Of a stretch of DNA of 10,299 nucleotides, positions 1,978 to 10,299 are shown piece after piece. Location of the stretch: positions 1 through 10,299 of the forward strand of contig JAGLRQ010000122.1 in the NCBI GenBank assembly GCA_023136205.1, written 5' to 3'. Source of the DNA: Candidatus Auribacterota bacterium. GTDB lineage: Bacteria > Auribacterota > UBA6266. Numbering within the stretch: position 1 is the first letter of the stretch; each line of letters begins with the position of its first letter. The notes under the pieces were generated by a model. That model saw only the letters and a list, made by a program, of their open reading frames with translations. It was not told the DNA's origin and searched no databases. Both the position numbers and the translations under genes were made by a program.

Positions 1978-2497
1978 TTGTTATATGTTTAAAAATATTC
2001 AAATAGAAGTAAAGTCCGTTGAAGGCAGTTGTAGCGCGGGATTTTGTCTGGGGAAGTGTTTTTCTCCTGAATCAATAATTCCGAAAGGGTTATGTCCTTT
2101 TTTGTATCACGCGGCACTTCCTTATCTGGAAGCTATAGAAAATGGAGCGTTTTTTAAGCCGTCCGGGAAAAATTTTATTAAGGTACAGTGTCCGAATACT
2201 TCGGTGGGCGTATTAGTTGAGATTTTTCAGGCTGAGAAAAAAGGAACTCAAATACGTGTTAGTGTGCCACATACCAAGGATTCAAAATGTCCATGTTATG
2301 ATTTCAAAGCCGGTGATAACTGGATAGTAACGGGAAATCAAAAAAGCTTTTGCCGCCGGGCTTATGATTCTCTTTTTCCATATTTAAACGCTTTATCATC
2401 TCAGACGAAAACTGCTGCCGAAAATGTTTTGACTGTAACATGCCCTTCATATCCTGATTTTGTGACTTTTAAGGTGATAAAATTATGGGAACCTTAA
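1967..2497 (+). CDS. Di-domain Cys-motif protein (two TIGR04076-like domains), paralog 2
   Basis: 176-aa ORF. ATG 1967 is preceded by AGAGGA (1959-1964) and overlaps the upstream gene by 11 nt. The N-terminus MKPDCY mirrors MNPCKY of the preceding gene, which supports this start. It carries two copies of the same module. Domain 3 Cys are C27/C31, C43 and C75. Domain 4 Cys are C108/C110, C129 and C159. Confidence 0.7.
   Translation: MKPDCYMFKNIQIEVKSVEGSCSAGFCLGKCFSPESIIPKGLCPFLYHAALPYLEAIENGAFFKPSGKNFIKVQCPNTSVGVLVEIFQAEKKGTQIRVSVPHTKDSKCPCYDFKAGDNWIVTGNQKSFCRRAYDSLFPYLNALSSQTKTAAENVLTVTCPSYPDFVTFKVIKLWEP
1994..2230 (+). other. Cys-motif domain copy 3 (protein-level repeat)
   Basis: NIQIEVKSVEGSCSAGFCLGKCF...PKGLCPFLYHAALPYLEAI...FIKVQCPNTSVGVLVEIFQ. 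GLCP codons verified at nt 2087-2098. Confidence 0.55.
2249..2482 (+). other. Cys-motif domain copy 4 (protein-level repeat)
   Basis: QIRVSVPHTKDSKCPCYDFKAGDNWIV...QKSFCRRAYDSLFPYLNAL...VLTVTCPSYPDFVTFKVIK. Central Cys codon at nt 2351-2353. GLCP is degenerated to SFCR. Confidence 0.55.
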
Positions 2498-3921
2498 GCT
2501 ATGGAAAAACGGTGAAAAGAATAACTTTGATCAGGCCGGGAGCATATCCCGAGGGTTTAATAGTTCCGTTGGGTTTGCTATATCTTGCGGGATATTTAAT
2601 TTCCAAAGTGCAGGACATTGATATTTCCATTCTTGATGCTGCTTTGGAAGATCTGGGGCCGGAAGAAATTGCTGAGAAAACAAAAATTCTTAAGCCGGAT
2701 TTAATTGGCCTGACTGGTTTAATAGCCCATACCGGTGATATAAAAAAAACTGCTAAGTGTATTCGCAAATTACTTCCGGAAACTGTTATTGTGGGCGGCG
2801 GCCCTGCCATGTCCTCTAACCATTTAGAACTATTAAAGGAACGGGCTATTGACTTTGGAGTAATAGGGGAAGGTGAAGAAACGTTTTTTTCTCTTCTCAA
2901 GGCACTTCGTGAGGATGGCAGCCTGTCCTTGATTGATGGCCTTGTTTATCGAGGGGAGGAGGACAGGATTATTCTCAATAATAAGCGCGGGATGATTGAA
3001 GACATAGACACGCTTCCGCGTCCTGCCTATCATTTAATTAAGGTTGAGGATTATTTTAACAGTTCTAAAAGAAATTCACAGTCACCTGTGTATATTTCCA
3101 AGCGCAATTTACCTATAATGACCTCCAGGGGGTGTCCGTTCAAATGTATTTACTGTCATAATCTTTTTGGGAAGAAGTTTCGTCCACGGAGTCCTGAGAA
3201 TGTGGTAGACGAAATCATTTGGCTCAAGCGTACATACAATATGGCCGAGCTTGAGATTATTGATGATATATTTAATTTTGATAAAGAACGTGCCAAGGAA
3301 ATTATGAGGAAAATTATCGATGAGGGGCTCAATTTAAAGATATCTTTTCCCAATGGGATTAAATATGAAACGATAGATGACGAATTACTGGAGTTGTTTA
3401 AAAAGGCCGGGGTTTATCGATTGGCATTTGGAATAGAAAGCGGCAATGAAAGAGTTCAAAAAGTGTTAAGAAAGGTTGTGGACCTTTACCGAATGCGTGA
3501 GATTATTGATCAGGTGGTTAAAATGGGTTTTTTTGTCAGCGGGTTTTTTCAGTTAGGGCTTCCCGGAGAAACTAAAGAGGAAATGTTGGATACAATTAAA
3601 TACGCGGCTTCTACAAAGCTTCATACAGCGACATTCCATTTGACCATTCCCTTTCCGGGAACACAGATGCATACTGAGTATGTTAAAGGGAAATTTGAAG
3701 CATCTCATTTCGAAAGCTGCAGAGATATTAGTGTTAATGTGAGCGCGGTAAGCGATCACGTTTTATTAAAACTTAAAAGATATGCCTTGTATAAATTTTA
3801 TTTTGACATCAAAAGGATGATCAGTATTTATAAGGTTTTTCCAGTTAAAAAAAGGATATTTTCAAACTTTATAAATGTGTTATCTGAAATATGTTTTCGA
3901 AAATGGTTAATTAATACATGA
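2485..3921 (+). CDS. B12-binding domain radical SAM enzyme (class B type)
   Basis: 478-aa ORF. ATG 2485 has AAGGTGA (2471-2477) upstream and overlaps the previous gene by 13 nt. The N-terminal ~130 aa look like the cobalamin-binding Rossmann domain of class B rSAMs (ITLIRPG...PLGLLYLAGYL...KPDLIGLTG...VIVGGGPAMS...DFGVIGEGEETF). The radical SAM motif is TSRGCPFKCIYCHN, with C217/C221/C224 at nt 3133-3156. RLAFGIESGNERV also fits the radical SAM core. Confidence 0.9.
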   Translation: MGTLSYGKTVKRITLIRPGAYPEGLIVPLGLLYLAGYLISKVQDIDISILDAALEDLGPEEIAEKTKILKPDLIGLTGLIAHTGDIKKTAKCIRKLLPETVIVGGGPAMSSNHLELLKERAIDFGVIGEGEETFFSLLKALREDGSLSLIDGLVYRGEEDRIILNNKRGMIEDIDTLPRPAYHLIKVEDYFNSSKRNSQSPVYISKRNLPIMTSRGCPFKCIYCHNLFGKKFRPRSPENVVDEIIWLKRTYNMAELEIIDDIFNFDKERAKEIMRKIIDEGLNLKISFPNGIKYETIDDELLELFKKAGVYRLAFGIESGNERVQKVLRKVVDLYRMREIIDQVVKMGFFVSGFFQLGLPGETKEEMLDTIKYAASTKLHTATFHLTIPFPGTQMHTEYVKGKFEASHFESCRDISVNVSAVSDHVLLKLKRYALYKFYFDIKRMISIYKVFPVKKRIFSNFINVLSEICFRKWLINT

Positions 3922-3928
3922 TAATTCT

Positions 3929-4732
3929 ATGAAGACAATTTTAAAAGGTAAAAATGTTTTGGTTACCGGAGCCGCGCACGGGATAGGGCGCGCGCTTACT
4001 AATTTTCTGGTAAAAGAAGGGTGCCGCCTTTGCCTGGTTGATATTGACAGGCCCGGGTTGATGAAAGTGTCGGATTTGGCGAAAGAAAAAGGGCTTGAAC
4101 CGATTTTGATGATTAAAGATCTGGCCCAGCCGAATGATAGGCAATCACTTATATCTTCATTGGATGAAAAGGGTTTTTATGTTGATATTCTTATTAATAA
4201 TGTTGGTGTAGGGTTCTGGCGCTATTTCCAGGATACGCCCTGGGAGAAACTTGACCAGATTATAGAGACAAACATTAAATGTATGACCCATCTAACGAAA
4301 CTGGTGTTACCCGGCATGCTGGTCAGGAATGAAGGGTATATTGTCAACCTGTCATCAACAGCGTCATTTATTGGGGCGCCTAACGCGGCTTGTTATTCGG
4401 CAACAAAAGCGTATATAAGTATTTTTAGTGAAACCCTTAATATGGAACTGAAAAAAACCAGGGTCAAAGTGATATGCGTATTTCCGGGAGCAACTGATAC
4501 CCCTTTCTGGAAATACGCTATGATGGATAACAGCAAATATAGCAGAGATATTCGCAGAATGACTGCCGAAGAAGTTGCTGAAGAAACTGTCGCGGCAATA
4601 AGAGCAGGCAAAGCTATTATAATTCCGGGGGCCAGAAACAGGTTGAATATGGTGATTGTGAAATTTTTGCCGCGTAAACTGTTAAAAAAAATTGCCTTGA
4701 ATCGTTTCAACGGCATAAACATAAAAAAATAA
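3929..4732 (+). CDS. Short-chain dehydrogenase/reductase (classical SDR) family oxidoreductase
   Basis: 267-aa ORF, 7 nt after the previous stop. TGxxxGIG cofactor motif (VLVTGAAHGIG, nt 3965-3988). NNVG (NNAG-type) motif. Catalytic Ser in NLSSTAS. YSATK with Y156/K160 (nt 4394-4408). PGATDTPF (PG motif). Confidence 0.9.
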   Translation: MKTILKGKNVLVTGAAHGIGRALTNFLVKEGCRLCLVDIDRPGLMKVSDLAKEKGLEPILMIKDLAQPNDRQSLISSLDEKGFYVDILINNVGVGFWRYFQDTPWEKLDQIIETNIKCMTHLTKLVLPGMLVRNEGYIVNLSSTASFIGAPNAACYSATKAYISIFSETLNMELKKTRVKVICVFPGATDTPFWKYAMMDNSKYSRDIRRMTAEEVAEETVAAIRAGKAIIIPGARNRLNMVIVKFLPRKLLKKIALNRFNGINIKK

Positions 4733-4747
4733 AGGCTTAAAATAAAG

Positions 4748-5188
4748 ATGAAGATTAGTCAACACATAATAAGTTCTTTACCTCTCGCGGGTGTATATTA
4801 TCTTATTACTAAAAATTTGCCGGCTGCTTTTTTGGTAGTTATTTCTACAATTGCTGTTGATATCGATCATGTCCTGGATTATGTTATTACACAGAAACGA
4901 ATAGATTCAATAAAAAATATGACAAAGGCTTTTGAAACATTTGACATTGTACACAAAAACTATCTTTTACTGCATTCCTGGGAGGCACTTGTTCTATTTG
5001 CTGTCTGTTTGTTCTTTTTCCCCAATCCGTATCTAATCGCGATTTTTACGGGGTATATGGTCCATCTTTTATGTGACCAGGTATTTAATTCCCATTTCTT
5101 AGGTAAATATAATACCAAATCGTTGTTCTACTTTTTTCTCTATCGGCTTCATATGAATTTTGATGTGTTGCCGATGAGAAAGGGGTAA
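4748..5188 (+). CDS. Small polytopic membrane protein, tentatively DUF457/YdjM-like membrane-bound metal-dependent hydrolase
   Basis: 146-aa ORF, 15 nt after the SDR stop. It has about four hydrophobic helices. His/Asp-containing motifs sit where the YdjM family has them: SQHIISS near the N-terminus, AVDIDHVLDY, LLLHSWEAL and GYMVHLLCDQ. The assignment is from memory of the family pattern only. Confidence 0.5.
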   Translation: MKISQHIISSLPLAGVYYLITKNLPAAFLVVISTIAVDIDHVLDYVITQKRIDSIKNMTKAFETFDIVHKNYLLLHSWEALVLFAVCLFFFPNPYLIAIFTGYMVHLLCDQVFNSHFLGKYNTKSLFYFFLYRLHMNFDVLPMRKG

Positions 5189-5194
5189 AAACAT

Positions 5195-8100
5195 ATGAAT
5201 AAAAACCTCAAGCAAAATGTAAAAAAATATTCCGGTGTTATAGAGATTGTTGCCGGGATAACCGCGGTGGTTGTCTTTATTCATGTTCTGAGAATTTTTC
5301 TTCTAAAAGGTGAAACGACTCTGATGCATGATAATTTCTACTGGGGATATCCTGTCTTCCAATTTTTTACGGAGAATATACTTAATGGCCATTTTCCCCT
5401 ATGGAATCCGTTTACACATGCTGGAGAACCGTTCTATCCGGTACTGTTTACGGCCCGATTACTGGATCCCAATATATTGCTGAGTATATTTTTAGGAAAA
5501 TTTTTTACTAACGATATTATCCTGTTATATAATTGGACATTTTTTTTGCAAAACTTGATAATGGTGTTTGGAATCTACCTTCTGTTTCGCCCGTTAGCTG
5601 GAAATCTATTTATACGTTTGTCTTTAATCCCTATTTTGCTTTATTCATCATTGATACTTGTTTCTTTTCGTCAAGGGCTGCCTTTGAGAACCTTTATATG
5701 GGTTCCTTTTATAACGTATTTTCTGCTTCGTATAATCTATTATAAAGATTACCGGTGGCATAACTGGCTTTTTCTGTCCGGTTTAATCGGCCTTAATTGG
5801 CAGTTCTATTATTTTTCTAACCTCTGGACATTCCTTTTATTGTTTTTCCTTGGCTTTGTGTTTTTTCGAAGGGATCTCTTAAAAGATTTGTTCAGAAGCA
5901 AAAATGTTGTTTTCAAATTCATAGCGGCAGGGGTGATTATATTCGCCATGATGATGCCAAACATTATTCTTATGCTGGAGAAAGACAATTATGTATATCC
6001 GGCAAGAATGATATATTCCGGCTATGAAGAAAAATTTCCTCAGGGAGGGCCGCAGCAATTTGAAGGCGATTCCCTGCCGGAAGTTTCTGGTATTGTAGTG
6101 CCTTATGGTTTGATGACTTATACAGGTTCTTTTTCGACCATCTGGAATTTCATTCAGATTATTTCCCCGGAAGCAAATAAAATGGTTACGGGGGACGAGA
6201 ACAGTTCTTGGGGGAAACCATCGGAAGCTTATATGTATTTAGGCCTTTTACCCTGGGCTATTGCTTTATTTGGTATGGCAGCCGGCAGGCACGGCCTTAA
6301 GAGATTATGGCTGTTTCTTCTTTTTGCGCTTGGATTGTTGATGTTGGGGCCGTCAGGAGGATTACATCGAATTCTCTATTACATTTTTCCTCCTCTCTGG
6401 TTTAACAGGCATACACAAAGTTTTACGCTATTCTTCTTGCTCCCTTTTTTATTTTTTTATGTTTTAGGATTTAACCGCATTTTTTCCACGTGGGATGGAG
6501 TTCTCTTTTCTTCTAATAATAAAACCGGCCCCATAAAACATCTGATACATAGGAAATCTGGCAATAGTACCGCATCCGGCCTCATAGCGTTGCTTCTGTT
6601 TTTTTGCAGCATAGTTGGTTTTGTATATTGGATGACGAATCTTGAATATCCGCAGACAAATTATTTATTCCTTTTAATTCTTTCTGTTTTTGCCATGGGC
6701 TGGTTACTGCGCAATGATTTGGGAGAAAAGGGAATATATACCGCTTTGATTGCAGGTTCTGTCGGCCTAGTTCTTATTCTGGGGCTTGAGCCGTTGGGAT
6801 TTATAACAAAAGTAATCCTATTTCTGTTGTTCCCTGTTATTTTGTTTTTACTTGTTAAAACAAATAAAAGATTATTTAAAAATTTTCCTATAGCGGCTGT
6901 TTTGCTTATTGCTTTTGCTCTTGTCCTGATTGAAGATTTAATCGCGCATCTTGATTTAACCGCTTATTTGTACCGGACACAAAGACACCCGAAGAAAGCC
7001 TTTAATTTTGAAACGTCTATTCGCGGCCCTGTGCTGCCTCGGAATAGAAAAATTGTTCCTGTTGCCGATTATGTTTTCGGCAATCAGTTTATGAGATATC
7101 TTTCTCTTATATATCATCAATCGTATGTCTTCTCGCCCGTTATGGAAGACCCGGAAATTTTATTTGAATCTCAGAAAAATATTACATTTGACGTGTTTAA
7201 GAATCATTCTTTCGAAGAATGGATTGAATTACCCGAAGGGCAGCTTTTGCCGGAGGGCTGCATATATTATCAGGAAGGAATAAGCGGTTTCGCGAAAAGA
7301 TATGATTTGGAAGGCGGTGTCGCAAAAGGCAAATATTCTGTTTTCCTGTCCCCATCGTCTAAAGGTAATTCCATGTTAAGATTTAGAACCGGAAACATTG
7401 AAGCTTTAAGGGGGCGGTTTATCAAGTTTTCGGTTTTAGTTAAAAGCCAGAATGAATCTTCTAATTGTATTCAGCTTGATATTCAGGATGGTGTAAGTCC
7501 TGTGACGGTTAGTTCTTATTCAAATAGCGGTGAATGGGAACGTATTTCAGTGACAAAGCGTATTGATGAGAACGCGAAGGAGATACTTCTTAATTTTAAT
7601 GTATTCCATAAATCTACTGCCGGAGCATTGTTTGATGAAGTAAAGATAGAAATTGGCAAAGGTATTGATTTTCCCGGAAAGTTTGAAAAGGCTTTATATA
7701 GCAAACGATGGAGTACTTTTTTACTGCTAAAAAGTTATTTTAATTTGATTAATTCGAGAATTCCTGCTCCTGTTTTAGAAAAAATGTTTGCGGTGGAGGA
7801 ACCTGTATTTCAGTTTAAACAGGGGGTTGTGGAAACGCGGAAAGGAGAGCTGATCCCTTTTTTAGAGAAACTGGATTCTGATGAAGCTGTTCAGTTGTTA
7901 GGAAAATATGTTTTAGCTGAGAAAAAATCTGATCTATCAATGGAACGTTTAAAAATATCTTTGGCAGATTACAAAAGATCAAAGGCGGGGAGTTATGAAT
8001 ACCGGAAGAGTAACAAGTTTTCATATTCCATTAAAAAATATGAGTACAGTTCTTTTGACATGGAGGTTTGTTCTGATAAAGCGGGGGTCCTTTACTGGTC

Positions 8101-8368
8101 TGACGGATATGACACAAGATGGAATGCCTATATTAATGGGAAGAAAGTTCCTGTTTATCGTGTTAACGTGAATTTTAAAGCTATTTACCTTCCGGCTGGT
8201 ACTAACCTGGTTAGTTTTGTTTATGAACATTCGCTGTTCACGTCAGCGCTGTTTGTGTTTTACAGTTTTTTTGCGGTATCTATTGCCGCGGGCCTGGCCG
8301 CGCTTGCGTACTGCTGTTTTGTGAAACGTGGGAAAAAATCGGGGCCGCTACTGACAATACAGTTGTAA
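5195..8368 (+). CDS. YfhO-like (GT-C-type) polytopic membrane glycosyltransferase-family protein with large extracytoplasmic C-terminal region
   Basis: 1057-aa ORF with GAAAGGGG upstream of ATG 5195. After TM1 comes HDNFYWGYPVFQFFTENILNGHFPLWNPFTHAGEPFY, which is the YfhO-type first-loop pattern (acidic residue, then L-x-G-x-x-P-L-W, then G-x-P). There are many TM helices up to about aa 585. The C-terminal signature YWSDGYDTRWNAYINGKKVPVYRVNVNFKAIYLPAGTNLVSFVYEHSLF is followed by a final TM helix (nt 8093-8239 onward), as in YfhO-family proteins. Confidence 0.75.
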   Translation: MNKNLKQNVKKYSGVIEIVAGITAVVVFIHVLRIFLLKGETTLMHDNFYWGYPVFQFFTENILNGHFPLWNPFTHAGEPFYPVLFTARLLDPNILLSIFLGKFFTNDIILLYNWTFFLQNLIMVFGIYLLFRPLAGNLFIRLSLIPILLYSSLILVSFRQGLPLRTFIWVPFITYFLLRIIYYKDYRWHNWLFLSGLIGLNWQFYYFSNLWTFLLLFFLGFVFFRRDLLKDLFRSKNVVFKFIAAGVIIFAMMMPNIILMLEKDNYVYPARMIYSGYEEKFPQGGPQQFEGDSLPEVSGIVVPYGLMTYTGSFSTIWNFIQIISPEANKMVTGDENSSWGKPSEAYMYLGLLPWAIALFGMAAGRHGLKRLWLFLLFALGLLMLGPSGGLHRILYYIFPPLWFNRHTQSFTLFFLLPFLFFYVLGFNRIFSTWDGVLFSSNNKTGPIKHLIHRKSGNSTASGLIALLLFFCSIVGFVYWMTNLEYPQTNYLFLLILSVFAMGWLLRNDLGEKGIYTALIAGSVGLVLILGLEPLGFITKVILFLLFPVILFLLVKTNKRLFKNFPIAAVLLIAFALVLIEDLIAHLDLTAYLYRTQRHPKKAFNFETSIRGPVLPRNRKIVPVADYVFGNQFMRYLSLIYHQSYVFSPVMEDPEILFESQKNITFDVFKNHSFEEWIELPEGQLLPEGCIYYQEGISGFAKRYDLEGGVAKGKYSVFLSPSSKGNSMLRFRTGNIEALRGRFIKFSVLVKSQNESSNCIQLDIQDGVSPVTVSSYSNSGEWERISVTKRIDENAKEILLNFNVFHKSTAGALFDEVKIEIGKGIDFPGKFEKALYSKRWSTFLLLKSYFNLINSRIPAPVLEKMFAVEEPVFQFKQGVVETRKGELIPFLEKLDSDEAVQLLGKYVLAEKKSDLSMERLKISLADYKRSKAGSYEYRKSNKFSYSIKKYEYSSFDMEVCSDKAGVLYWSDGYDTRWNAYINGKKVPVYRVNVNFKAIYLPAGTNLVSFVYEHSLFTSALFVFYSFFAVSIAAGLAALAYCCFVKRGKKSGPLLTIQL
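7178..7657 (+). other. CBM4/9-like (galactose-binding-like jelly-roll) segment inside the YfhO-like protein
   Basis: aa 662-821: NHSFEEW...KGKYSVFLSP...RGRFIKFSVLVKSQNESSNCIQLDIQDG...SNSGEWERISVTKRIDENAKEILLNFNVFHKSTAGALFDEVKIEIG. The order is: aromatic/acidic start, 'G-x-Y-x-hydrophobic' strand, 'hydrophobic-x-F-S-V-x-V-K' strand, then W-x-x-I-S-V. The terminal F-D-E-V-x-I matches the usual CBM_4_9 layout. Recognised by eye only. Confidence 0.4.
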
Positions 8369-8391
8369 CCTGTGATAGTTTTTTTTATAAT
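8363..8391 (+). promoter_or_regulatory. Candidate sigma70-type promoter in the only sizeable intergenic gap
   Basis: TTGTAA (8363-8368, 4/6 match to TTGACA, overlapping the TAA stop), an exact 17-nt spacer, then a perfect TATAAT (8386-8391). It lies about 70 nt upstream of ATG 8465, which has its own AAGGA (8451-8455). In AT-rich DNA such matches arise by chance fairly often. Confidence 0.3.
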
Positions 8392-8464
8392 GTGGTTTGA
8401 AATGGTTTTTGGTGAGGTTTTTTGTTGAAAAGGTTGTTTTATCGGAGAAAAAGGATTTGAGTAT

Positions 8465-9730
8465 ATGAATTTTAAAAAGGATGTTCTTTTCGCGAAGAAA
8501 AACAGAAAAACTGAAGCAATATTTATAAGCCTGATTTCTATGTTGTTTTTCTTATTCGTATATAAAATATTAACAGCCCAATCAATGCTTTCACATGATT
8601 CAATCCGCTGGTATGGCGTTTATCACCTCTTTGCGGATTCACTGTTAAACGGTATTTTTCCCTATTGGGATCCGTTTGATTCCTGCGGCCAGCCCTTTTA
8701 TTATAATTTGGGTATTTTGAGGTTGTATGAACCGATAACCGTTGGGTTTATTATGTTGCAAAAAGTGTTTAATTCTTCAATATTAAGTATTTATCATTGG
8801 GAATACATAATAAGAATTTGGTTGGTGGCCTTGGGTGTGTATCTGTGCTACAGGCAGACAAATAAATATCTTCTCAGCAGTTGTATGGTTTTTGCCGTGT
8901 TTTTATTTTCGTCTTTTGCCGTTACCTCTTTCAGACAGAATGGTGTTTTGTACGTATTTTTCTGGACGCCTCTGGCCATGTACTTTTTTTTGAAGCTCCT
9001 GAAGGATTTCAGTCTTTATAATGTAATAGGTTTTTCTTTTTTTATAGGCCTGTCATTGATTAATTATCAGGGGGTATATATACTAACCTACCTTTTTATT
9101 TTTATACTTACTTTATTGATTAATAAAAGAGGTTATTTAATCTCGGTATTTAAAAACGCTAAAAATTTGGTTCGTATCTTCGCCGGGATAATCGTGGTGG
9201 TTATTCTGGCCCTGCCATTACTGGGCATTTACATTGAAAAAGATAAGATAATTCCCAGTGTGAGATTGAGAGACAAAGCTGAGATCTCCGGGGGAATAAA
9301 CCTGGCCTATGATTCTATAGAAAAAGCGGGTACGCATTCCAATATAGCTGATTTTCTGGAACTTATATTTCCTCCGGTGGCACGCGGTTATTTCTGGCAT
9401 TGGTTTCCTGTATCCGGGGCTGCTTTGTCAGAGTGTTTTTTATATATCGGTATATTCCCGCTTGTATTAGGTATCCTGGGCGCTGTGAAATCCAGGCAGG
9501 AGTATCGCAAAAACTTTCTAATTACCCTTGTTCTTGTCGGGCTTTTGATGTTGGGCCCGAAATATGGTATTCACAGGCTGATATACTTTTTATTTTATCC
9601 TTTGCGGGTTACGCGGCACATGCATCTTTTCGCGGGGTTTTTTATATTTACACTGCTTTATTTTGTCGGGCAGGGTATAGATTTTGTTATAGATAACACT
9701 TTAGCGAAATTTACAAAGGATGGAAGATGA
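8465..9730 (+). CDS. YfhO-like membrane protein paralog, N-terminal (transmembrane) part
   Basis: 421-aa ORF, colinear with aa ~40-430 of the 5195-8368 product. SHDSIRWYGVYHLFADSLLNGIFPYWDPFDSCGQPFY matches MHDNFYWGYPVFQFFTENILNGHFPLWNPFTHAGEPFY. SSFAVTSFRQ matches SSLILVSFRQ. GLLMLGPKYGIHRLIYFLFYPLRVTRH matches GLLMLGPSGGLHRILYYIFPPLWFNRH. It ends at TGA 9728-9730, before any extracytoplasmic domain. Confidence 0.75.
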   Translation: MNFKKDVLFAKKNRKTEAIFISLISMLFFLFVYKILTAQSMLSHDSIRWYGVYHLFADSLLNGIFPYWDPFDSCGQPFYYNLGILRLYEPITVGFIMLQKVFNSSILSIYHWEYIIRIWLVALGVYLCYRQTNKYLLSSCMVFAVFLFSSFAVTSFRQNGVLYVFFWTPLAMYFFLKLLKDFSLYNVIGFSFFIGLSLINYQGVYILTYLFIFILTLLINKRGYLISVFKNAKNLVRIFAGIIVVVILALPLLGIYIEKDKIIPSVRLRDKAEISGGINLAYDSIEKAGTHSNIADFLELIFPPVARGYFWHWFPVSGAALSECFLYIGIFPLVLGILGAVKSRQEYRKNFLITLVLVGLLMLGPKYGIHRLIYFLFYPLRVTRHMHLFAGFFIFTLLYFVGQGIDFVIDNTLAKFTKDGR

Positions 9731-10299
9731 AAGAGGCCTTTTTAAGCCTTATTTATATTATAGTGCTCTATATGTATTTATTAGTAAGTCTGCTTGCCGC
9801 AATCTATTGGATAAAAAAGAAAAAAAAACTACTGGGGCCTTTTTTGTTAATTGTTGTTGCGATTGCGATAGACCTTTTTTTATTTAATAGGTTTATCTTA
9901 AATGAAGTAGTTTTACCACGTAAAGGTATTGGGTTTGAGAAATATCCAACCCCGTATAGTTTTTCGAAAAATAGAGTTCCAAATTTAATTTCGGACAATG
10001 GTTTCCATAATTTTCGTCCTGCCCTTTACAAAAAAGCTGTCGCTGTCGGCAGTTATACAATTGATGAAGCTGTAATAGATAACCACAGTGTGCCAAAAGC
10101 GTATGTGGTATTGCAGGACCATTTTTCTAAATATCCTTTATATGATGAATTAAATAAATTGAATATAAAACAGTTTATTAAATATGGCATGTCAAATATT
10201 GACAGTTGGGTGATAGAGGAAAGATTGTTTTTTTCAATAATATTAAATGCCGTATTAGATGGGTTTTTATCTCATCAGAGTTTTTATGAAAAATATATA
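9727..10299 (+). CDS. Continuation of the second YfhO-like paralog as a separate ORF (3'-truncated by the window edge)
   Basis: My own translation; not in the supplied track. ATG 9727 overlaps TGA 9728-9730 (ATGA). The frame stays open for 191 codons to the window end: MKEAFLSLIYIIVLYMYLLVSLLAAIYWIKKKKKLLGPFLLIVVAIAIDLFLFNRFILNEVVLPRKGIGFEKYPTPYSFSKNRVPNLISDNGFHNFRPALYKKA... It has two TM helices separated by KKKKK, then a soluble region. That region loosely aligns with KKAFNFETSIRGPVLPRNRKIVPVADYVFGNQF, which follows the last TM helix of the 1057-aa paralog. Confidence 0.6.
   Translation, partial: MKEAFLSLIYIIVLYMYLLVSLLAAIYWIKKKKKLLGPFLLIVVAIAIDLFLFNRFILNEVVLPRKGIGFEKYPTPYSFSKNRVPNLISDNGFHNFRPALYKKAVAVGSYTIDEAVIDNHSVPKAYVVLQDHFSKYPLYDELNKLNIKQFIKYGMSNIDSWVIEERLFFSIILNAVLDGFLSHQSFYEKYI

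Follow-up and report, generated by a model that had tools for sequence, protein, structure and literature searches.

The DNA analyzed in this study (the window) is the entire 10,299-bp contig JAGLRQ010000122.1 of Candidatus Auribacterota bacterium, here called C27, from a 1.76-Mb bin that consists of 166 contigs and is 92.65% complete. The host phylum is labeled Omnitrophota in all genome counts given below. The window makes up the 3' half of an array of at least 20.7 kb and 18 genes, all on one strand. On balance, we favor the interpretation that this is an envelope-glycosylation array, in which a portable tailoring cassette built around radical S-adenosylmethionine (rSAM) enzymes is attached to exchangeable output modules that use lipid carriers. 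The array probably makes and installs a modified surface sugar. A previous reading of the window, made from the DNA letters and their translations (the sequence-only reading), had placed the rSAM cassette in a pathway that ends in polyprenyl-phosphate-dependent glycosylation by GT-C enzymes. This general idea is supported by the predicted polyprenyl-phosphate sugar synthase P0017, the YfhO-type protein P0001 and the contexts in which the cassette was found in foreign genomes, and that earlier interpretation as a whole was partly supported.

The upstream genes missing from the window were located by a tblastn search of the genome with proteins of related loci, which placed them on a second contig, C97. 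The last 25 bases of the C97 reverse complement are identical to the start of the window, and the reading frame of a methyltransferase runs through the junction. The joined array is 20,721 bp long, and its 18 genes are co-directional and overlap or lie within ~20 nt of their neighbors; between P0001 and P0002, however, there is a T-rich gap of 96 nt with a promoter-like site. The genes on C97 are, in order, a partial DegT gene, P0017, P0016, a gene for a B12-binding rSAM enzyme (B12-rSAM), a gene for a GFO-type oxidoreductase that resembles UDP-GlcNAc 3-dehydrogenase, and the genes for a DegT aminotransferase, a soluble GT2, another B12-rSAM and the methyltransferase. All long open reading frames (ORFs) of the window are on the + strand. 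The same-strand spacers of 7, 15 and 6 nt before the short-chain dehydrogenase/reductase (SDR), the small membrane protein and P0001, as previously noted, were confirmed from the junction sequences. No terminator-like site was found between positions 4732 and 5195, where one was looked for. Terminator-like sites were not enriched in the window, since 15 were found vs 10.1 +/- 3.7 in shuffles.

P0017 is a polypeptide of 312 amino acid residues (aa) with two C-terminal membrane helices. Its full-length matches were PgfS (E 2e-60) and ArnC (E 6.5e-35), both of which were under the equivalog cut-offs. Judged from its sequence, P0017 is a predicted polyprenyl-phosphate sugar synthase of the GtrB/ArnC/PgfS type. 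A GtrB/CsbB-like polyprenyl-phosphate GT2 had been anticipated just outside the window, and P0017 on the abutting contig C97 is such a protein. The neighboring gene P0016 (L059:6754-9009, minus strand), which overlaps P0017 by 11 nt, encodes a multi-pass membrane protein of 751 aa that has a CBM_4_9 domain at its C-terminus. By language-model resemblance, P0016 was similar to PMT_2 clusters in the Atlas (0.97).

P0001 (1057 aa; positions 5195 to 8368, + strand) is a true but divergent long-form YfhO-type GT-C glycosyltransferase with an inserted carbohydrate-binding module, given that the profile alignment, the conserved residues H45 and D46 and the superpositions of its model agree with each other. 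The polypeptide consists of a membrane core (residues 1-590), an inserted carbohydrate-binding beta-sandwich (residues ~660-832), a YfhO C-terminal domain (residues 911-1020) and a last membrane helix. The Pfam YfhO model (PF09586) matched P0001 with 34.2 bits against a cut-off of 28.5 (E 1.3e-8), and the match covered residues 911-1020 only, which correspond to model positions 726-833. No Pfam match at an E of 1 or less was found for the N-terminal 600 aa of P0001 or for P0002 and P0003. An exhaustive search identified 185 representatives of the P0001 family at an E of 1e-30 or better, and a relative that is 44% identical to P0001 is named 'YfhO family protein' by NCBI. When 43 sequences of the P0001 family were aligned with 9 Omnitrophota proteins positive for Pfam YfhO by hhalign, the probability was 100% (E 6e-40) and the alignment of 715 columns spanned from the first transmembrane helix to the C-terminus. 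The residues H45 and D46 of the first extracytoplasmic loop, which come after membrane helix 1, were nearly invariant in the 43 members of the family. Moreover, D46 aligned with a conserved Asp of the canonical YfhO proteins.

The AlphaFold model of P0001 had a predicted local distance difference test score (pLDDT) of 89.6 and a predicted template modeling score (pTM) of 0.88. It superposed on yeast STT3 (8agc_A) with a VIA-align Z of 16.8 over 408 residues at a root-mean-square deviation (rmsd) of 4.6, and on AftD (6w98_A) with a Z of 16.2 over 559 residues at an rmsd of 6.9. Residues 660-832 matched the folds of CBM16, CBM4 and CBM22 with Z of 14-15. It was this second comparison with VIA-align, not Foldseek, that brought up the GT-C structural matches; the Foldseek list was filled by the carbohydrate-binding domain, and of the GT-C structures it contained just EmbC (E 8e-4). 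The first large membrane gene of the window, previously described as YfhO-like, is therefore a YfhO homolog both by profile and by fold.

The sequence-only reading had counted two YfhO-like paralogs. P0002 is indeed homologous to P0001; the second paralog, however, is not one gene but is split between P0002 and P0003. P0002 (421 aa; positions 8465 to 9730, + strand) corresponds to the N-terminal membrane core of the second YfhO-type paralog. It was 29% identical to residues 4-421 of P0001 over 420 aa (E 4e-47) and contains 8-9 hydrophobic segments. The P0002 ortholog of the sister species had the same length and was 92% identical. P0003, with which the second half of this divided paralog begins, overlaps P0002 by 4 nt (ATGA) and extends from position 9727 to position 10299 on the + strand, where it runs off the contig end. 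Its 191 visible aa comprise two membrane helices followed by a soluble part and showed no similarity to the P0001 family profile. The P0003 ortholog (L032:1-1377) was 79% identical and possesses the Pfam YfhO C-terminal domain at its end (E 4e-12), from which we conclude that the second YfhO-type paralog is divided into two coupled ORFs, a core of 421 aa and a second ORF of ~510 aa. Because the split is retained in the sister species (L018:2519-3769; L032:1-1377), a genuine form with two subunits is more probable than an error.

The rSAM cassette was rare and scattered in its distribution. Its conserved unit consists of the genes for a B12-rSAM, a methyltransferase, an rSAM enzyme, two TIGR04076 Cys proteins, an optional B12-rSAM, an SDR and a YdjM-like membrane protein. 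The cassette was present in 2 of 79 Omnitrophota species genomes, both of the same genus, and full-length proteins of the P0001 type were found in the same two genomes. The sister species was collinear with this array as far as assembled, of which contig C96 ends at window position 4172, C130 starts at 5940 and C152 continues P0003. Among 401 Thermodesulfobacteriota genomes, one contained a close cassette, on a 4-kb contig. In the same 401 genomes, P0001-like genes were limited to one 255-aa fragment with no cassette nearby. This isolated frame (L070:6753-7520, genome G459), which shares 51% identity with P0001 over its residues 1-238, looks like the remnant of a P0001-like gene.

Scans of genomes and metagenomes with an alignment of a marker protein, the 176-aa TIGR04076 protein of the cassette, identified 7 loci, several of which were too short. 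Near-identical marker proteins are also encoded on long contigs of up to 291 kb. The three foreign loci comprise a pair of close relatives, L003 and L005, and a separate one, L006. L003 and L005 kept the B12-rSAM, methyltransferase, rSAM, both TIGR04076, second B12-rSAM, SDR and YdjM-like genes at identities of 54-73%, and the genes for a GFO, an acetyltransferase, a DegT and a GT2 were located 5' of their cassettes. Downstream of the L005 cassette, there were genes for a flippase-like LPG_synthase_TM protein and another B12-rSAM. L006 kept the rSAM, both TIGR04076, SDR and YdjM-like genes and ended in a PMT_2 GT-C gene. Across L003/L005 and L006, the identities of these five kept proteins ranged from 51 to 73%. 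No YfhO-like gene was found in the readable flanking DNA of L003, L005 and L006. The genes after the unit thus varied by lineage, with a YfhO pair in this genome and phosphorylase, phosphoribosyltransferase and M29-like genes followed by a flippase-like or PMT_2 GT-C gene elsewhere. The expectation that the cassette would be co-conserved with YfhO-like genes did not hold, as their co-occurrence was confined to one genus and the readable DNA of the foreign cassette loci contained no YfhO. Given that the foreign loci keep the cassette without YfhO, the transferase partner appears to be exchangeable. As a portable module on exchangeable output modules, the cassette would therefore be no fixed partner of YfhO. 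The recurrent association of the cassette is with genes for amino sugars and a GT2 and with genes for lipid-carrier glycosylation, whose family varies.

The genes that follow the foreign cassettes encode a purine nucleoside phosphorylase, an adenine-phosphoribosyltransferase-like protein and an M29-like protein (L003:11704-14106; L005:13276-15717; L006:5133-7568). These genes may provide a built-in salvage of the 5'-deoxyadenosine and adenine released by rSAM enzymes, and we consider salvage a simpler explanation for the nucleoside phosphorylase than an HpnH/HpnG-like logic. The foreign phosphoribosyltransferase and M29-like genes had no tblastn match in the genome studied here, which contains only a distant nucleoside phosphorylase, on contig C137 (32% identity).

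The genes for the SDR and the YdjM-like protein are to be counted with the cassette, as are the rSAM and TIGR04076 genes, and not with YfhO, because the foreign loci keep both while no YfhO was found in their readable DNA. The classical SDR (267 aa; positions 3929 to 4732, + strand; Pfam adh_short, E 5e-42) has orthologs directly 3' of the cassette that were 60% identical in L003/L005 and 55% identical in L006. A hydrophobic segment was looked for in the SDR and none was found. Its best NCBIfam models were of the 3-ketoacyl-ACP reductase or mycolate reductase type, and no DprE2 model was among the best 25 of its 220 NCBIfam matches. The YdjM-like small membrane protein (146 aa; positions 4748 to 5188, + strand) matched Pfam YdjM with an E of 5e-5, under the curated cut-off, and orthologs with identities of 51-54% follow the SDR in L003, L005 and L006. 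The residues H6, D38, D40, H41, D44, H76, E79, H106 and D110 were invariant in four orthologs, and from these invariant His and Asp residues the YdjM-like protein is predicted to be a membrane metal-dependent hydrolase.

In six other genomes of Omnitrophota, all without the rSAM cassette, relatives of the YdjM-like protein were also encoded immediately next to canonical YfhO genes (L073, L074, L076, L077, L079, and L081), and the two genes were mostly convergent and once co-directional. In three further Omnitrophota genomes, such a relative was located within 4 kb of a canonical YfhO gene (L075, L078, and L083). The genomes with YdjM-like relatives near canonical YfhO belong to three families. 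This adjacency in Omnitrophota may be lineage synteny. The neighbors of YdjM-like genes in Thermodesulfobacteriota were mixed, and the 33 examined included 4 periplasmic binding proteins, 4 GGDEF proteins, 3 rSAM enzymes and 2 GT2. Because of this heterogeneity, no general link between YdjM-like proteins and glycosylation is claimed.

The first gene of the conserved core of the cassette encodes an rSAM enzyme of 347 aa (positions 293 to 1336, + strand; Pfam Radical_SAM, E 5e-25) with a C-terminal SPASM/twitch-like Cys array. Its orthologs were 73% (L003) and 63% (L006) identical. The nearest solved structures were SkfB, tetraether synthase and BlsE, of which only the rSAM core was aligned, and the 347-aa enzyme was about equally similar to SkfB, tetraether synthase, BlsE, PqqE and viperin over this core only. 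The B12-rSAM of the window (478 aa; positions 2485 to 3921, + strand) has Pfam B12-binding and Radical_SAM domains. Its best NCBIfam models were those of the P-methyltransferase, BchE and HpnJ types with 160-185 bits, far under the cut-offs, and it was missing from the L006 cassette. A dehydratase and reductase pair of the AprD4/AprD3 type was considered and rejected, as the AprD4 model gave 57 bits against a cut-off of 500 for the B12-domain rSAM and, for an obligate pairing, L006 has the SDR without the 478-aa B12-rSAM. At least 10 B12-binding rSAM paralogs were found in the genome (contigs C114, C28, C151, C26, C97, C18, C10, C61, and C67), and those on C114 and C26 adjoin GT2, DegT and methyltransferase genes.

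The class I SAM methyltransferase at the window start is represented in the window by its C-terminal 96 aa (positions 3 to 293, + strand), and its N-terminal 220 aa are on contig C97 (L059:662-3, minus strand). It was 62% identical to the methyltransferase of L005, and its sister-species ortholog matched Pfam methyltransferase domains.

The two Cys proteins of the cassette both have double TIGR04076 domains. The first (223 aa; positions 1306 to 1977, + strand) matched NCBIfam TIGR04076 in 2 stretches (E 6e-15) and had orthologs that were 69% (L003) and 54% (L006) identical. The second (176 aa; positions 1967 to 2497, + strand; NCBIfam TIGR04076, E 9e-19), which is the marker of the distribution searches, matched just 12 protein clusters among 5.8 billion proteins. 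The members of the marker family were conserved over their full length with identities of 44-63% and possessed six invariant Cys. The model of the 176-aa protein was a two-repeat alpha/beta protein (pLDDT 76, pTM 0.77), for which no fold match with a Z of 5 or more was found in the PDB. Given that they are conserved throughout and predicted to fold, the TIGR04076 proteins fit a partner role better than a substrate role, which is consistent with the previous proposal that they are folded partners of the rSAM enzymes rather than their substrates. A distant double TIGR04076 protein was found in a conserved operon of the Thermodesulfobacteriota genomes G224, G087, G119 and G285 (L054, L055, L056, and L057), together with a B12-rSAM, an aldehyde-ferredoxin-oxidoreductase-like protein, a ketopantoate-reductase-like protein, two FabF-like ketosynthases and an SDR. 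It thus appears that TIGR04076 proteins occur alongside B12-rSAM enzymes in more than one type of pathway, including those that are polyketide or fatty-acid-like.

Together, these genes suggest the following pathway. The GFO and DegT enzymes would make an amino sugar. In the cytoplasm, the cassette may then tailor the amino sugar through the methyltransferase, radical methylation by the B12-rSAM enzymes and a redox step by the rSAM enzyme plus the SDR; during tailoring, the sugar could still be bound to its nucleotide or could have been moved to the lipid carrier before. Either of the two GT2 enzymes would load the sugar on polyprenyl phosphate, and a flippase would move the lipid-linked sugar across the membrane. 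Finally, the GT-C enzymes would transfer the sugar, outside the membrane, to an envelope glycan that is bound by their carbohydrate-binding module.

Several observations weigh against this interpretation. The flippase expected near the locus was not found in the array, and no match to the GtrA family (PF04138) was identified in this 92.65% complete genome, although the control genomes gave matches. The sole LPG_synthase_TM gene of the genome is on contig C113, away from the array. P0016 showed no similarity to the P0001 family profile or to the PMT_2 protein of L006; with these sequence comparisons empty, its candidate GT-C status comes from the Atlas resemblance. Moreover, none of the rSAM enzymes of the window reached any NCBIfam cut-off, and no substrate or product was assigned to the cassette enzymes. 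The loci with enough flanking DNA to be readable numbered four to five, of which three were outside the phylum, and the adjacency of the cassette and YfhO represents one evolutionary event in one genus. Finally, that the SDR is classical and that distant TIGR04076 relatives occur in operons with ketosynthases would be compatible with a lipid or acyl substrate as well.

Among the alternatives, the one that we regard as a serious, though minority, possibility is that the adjacency is without functional link, such that the cassette tailors a nucleotide sugar for another glycan (e.g., lipopolysaccharide or a capsule assembled inside the cell) and the YfhO pair separately uses an ordinary sugar loaded by the GtrB-like enzyme. 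The cassettes of L003, L005 and L006 without YfhO in readable DNA would be expected if this were true, and the P0001 family was more than 10 times commoner than the cassette (185 representatives vs 12 clusters). Similarly, the GtrB-like gene overlaps P0016, which is apparently its own partner, and the gap of 96 nt with the promoter-like site lies before the second paralog. However, only 6 nt without a terminator-like site separate the last cassette gene from P0001, the cassette and the P0001-like pair are both restricted, within the phylum, to the same two genomes of a single genus, and the foreign cassettes also end in genes for lipid-carrier glycosylation, either flippase-like or PMT_2 GT-C. 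A modification of a lipid or acyl group, such as an N-acyl chain on a 3-amino sugar or the carrier lipid, would explain why the best models of the SDR are of the 3-ketoacyl-ACP reductase or mycolate reductase type, why the B12-rSAM scored with HpnJ, HpnR and 'lipid biosynthesis' B12-rSAM models and the rSAM with tetraether synthase and HpnH, and why the distant double TIGR04076 protein is found in operons with a B12-rSAM, two FabF-like ketosynthases and an SDR. All these scores were, however, far under the family cut-offs, the locus contains no acyl carrier protein, ketosynthase or acyltransferase, and the cassette travels with sugar-nucleotide enzymes and GT2 in L003/L005 as well as in this genome, which makes such a role improbable.

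The specific mechanism put forward in the sequence-only reading was an anaerobic counterpart of DprE1/DprE2, in which the rSAM enzyme dehydrogenates a sugar linked to polyprenyl phosphate, the SDR re-reduces it, the B12-rSAM C-methylates it and the YfhO paralogs install it. We consider this mechanism unlikely, even though the rSAM enzyme, the SDR and the membrane protein make up the part of the cassette that does not vary, the SDR is a classical one like DprE2, a polyprenyl-phosphate GT2 and GT-C enzymes are within the same array and tailoring at the carrier level is precedented by ArnD and DprE1/DprE2. The resemblance of the rSAM enzyme is about equal to several families and confined to the core, with no sign of a dehydrogenase; the SDR is without a hydrophobic segment and, among its best 25 of 220 NCBIfam matches, without any DprE2 model; the GFO and DegT genes point to nucleotide-sugar chemistry; and YfhO is no conserved partner. 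A related proposal, that the invariant core of the rSAM enzyme with its two TIGR04076 partners, the SDR and the His/Asp membrane protein tailors a polyprenyl-phosphate amino sugar at the membrane as an oxygen-independent counterpart of DprE1/DprE2 and, together with B12-dependent C-methylation, yields a new class of donor for the YfhO and PMT_2 GT-C enzymes, is in our view also doubtful. Far less probable than any of these, and hardly to be expected, is a pathway resembling those of ribosomally synthesized and post-translationally modified peptides (RiPPs), in which maturation of the TIGR04076 proteins or of a peptide would be the sole function of the rSAM enzymes. Although the rSAM enzyme has a SPASM-like Cys array and many of its NCBIfam matches are peptide maturases, the TIGR04076 proteins of 176-223 aa are conserved over their full length and predicted to fold, the ~40 residues before the CX3CX2C motif are too few for a recognition domain, and neither a protease nor an exporter was found in the 20.7-kb array.

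The interpretation that we favor, an envelope-glycosylation array with a portable tailoring cassette, would have consequences beyond this genome. The cassette is mobile between phyla and is joined to GT-C enzymes of more than one family. Provided that this coupling is real, anaerobes make radical-tailored surface sugars that have not been observed before, and the TIGR04076 family and the YdjM-like membrane protein would gain their first biochemical context. In addition, the joining of C97 with the window gives a nearly complete pathway that is open to expression and assay.

Arn and DprE1/DprE2 pathways are precedents for the tailoring of a sugar on its lipid carrier, and DprE2 is an SDR of the classical type. 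Similar to the Arn pathway (ArnB, ArnC, ArnD, ArnE/F, and ArnT), the array described here contains a DegT-type aminotransferase, a polyprenyl-phosphate GT2 and a GT-C end enzyme, and similar to the systems with DprE1/DprE2 and Emb/Aft enzymes, it has a GT-C protein, P0001, whose model superposes on AftD. Different from both, however, no homolog of ArnA, ArnD or DprE1 was seen and the oxidative and methylating enzymes are rSAM enzymes. Tailoring at the lipid level is a possibility here. The combination of an rSAM enzyme with an NAD(P)-dependent reductase and the action of B12-rSAM enzymes on amino sugars are established chemistry. Of the enzymes with such chemistry, BtrN, AprD4/AprD3, BlsE and the GenK-type C-methylases, BlsE and AprD4 were among the nearest solved structures. 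The likeness to these enzymes, however, stops at the rSAM core with scores far under the cut-offs, and the genes around the rSAM enzymes here belong to a locus for an envelope glycan instead of a cluster for an aminoglycoside or nucleoside. To our knowledge, extracytoplasmic single-sugar glycosylation through lipid carriers, as in Firmicutes, enterobacteria and mycobacteria, always uses ordinary or lightly modified sugars. In the literature on rSAM enzymes with polyprenyl, GT-C or nucleotide sugars, no description of a system like this one was found.

Multi-component transmembrane glycosylation, which consists of a GT-A, a flippase and a GT-C, provides the frame for comparison (PMC8035078). 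In such systems, large GT-C enzymes can bear carbohydrate-binding domains, and the flippases are frequently encoded elsewhere or not identified (PMC8035078). Similar to the CsbB/GtcA/YfhO systems of Bacillus, Staphylococcus and Listeria, GtrA/GtrB/GtrC and PgfS/PgfM, the array possesses a GT-A with two C-terminal membrane helices, P0017, and its multi-pass YfhO-family GT-C enzymes are likely the outside transferases. Different from these systems, the host is of the diderm type and without teichoic acids, its genome contains no GtrA-family flippase, and P0001 matches Pfam YfhO at its C-terminus only, while one paralog is split. Moreover, the array embeds four rSAM enzymes, two TIGR04076 proteins, an SDR and a YdjM-like protein. 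Thus, what is known is the frame of multi-component transmembrane glycosylation, and what is new is the embedded rSAM/TIGR04076 cassette, which is mobile between GT-C families, together with YfhO proteins of a long form and a split form in a phylum that has no teichoic acids.

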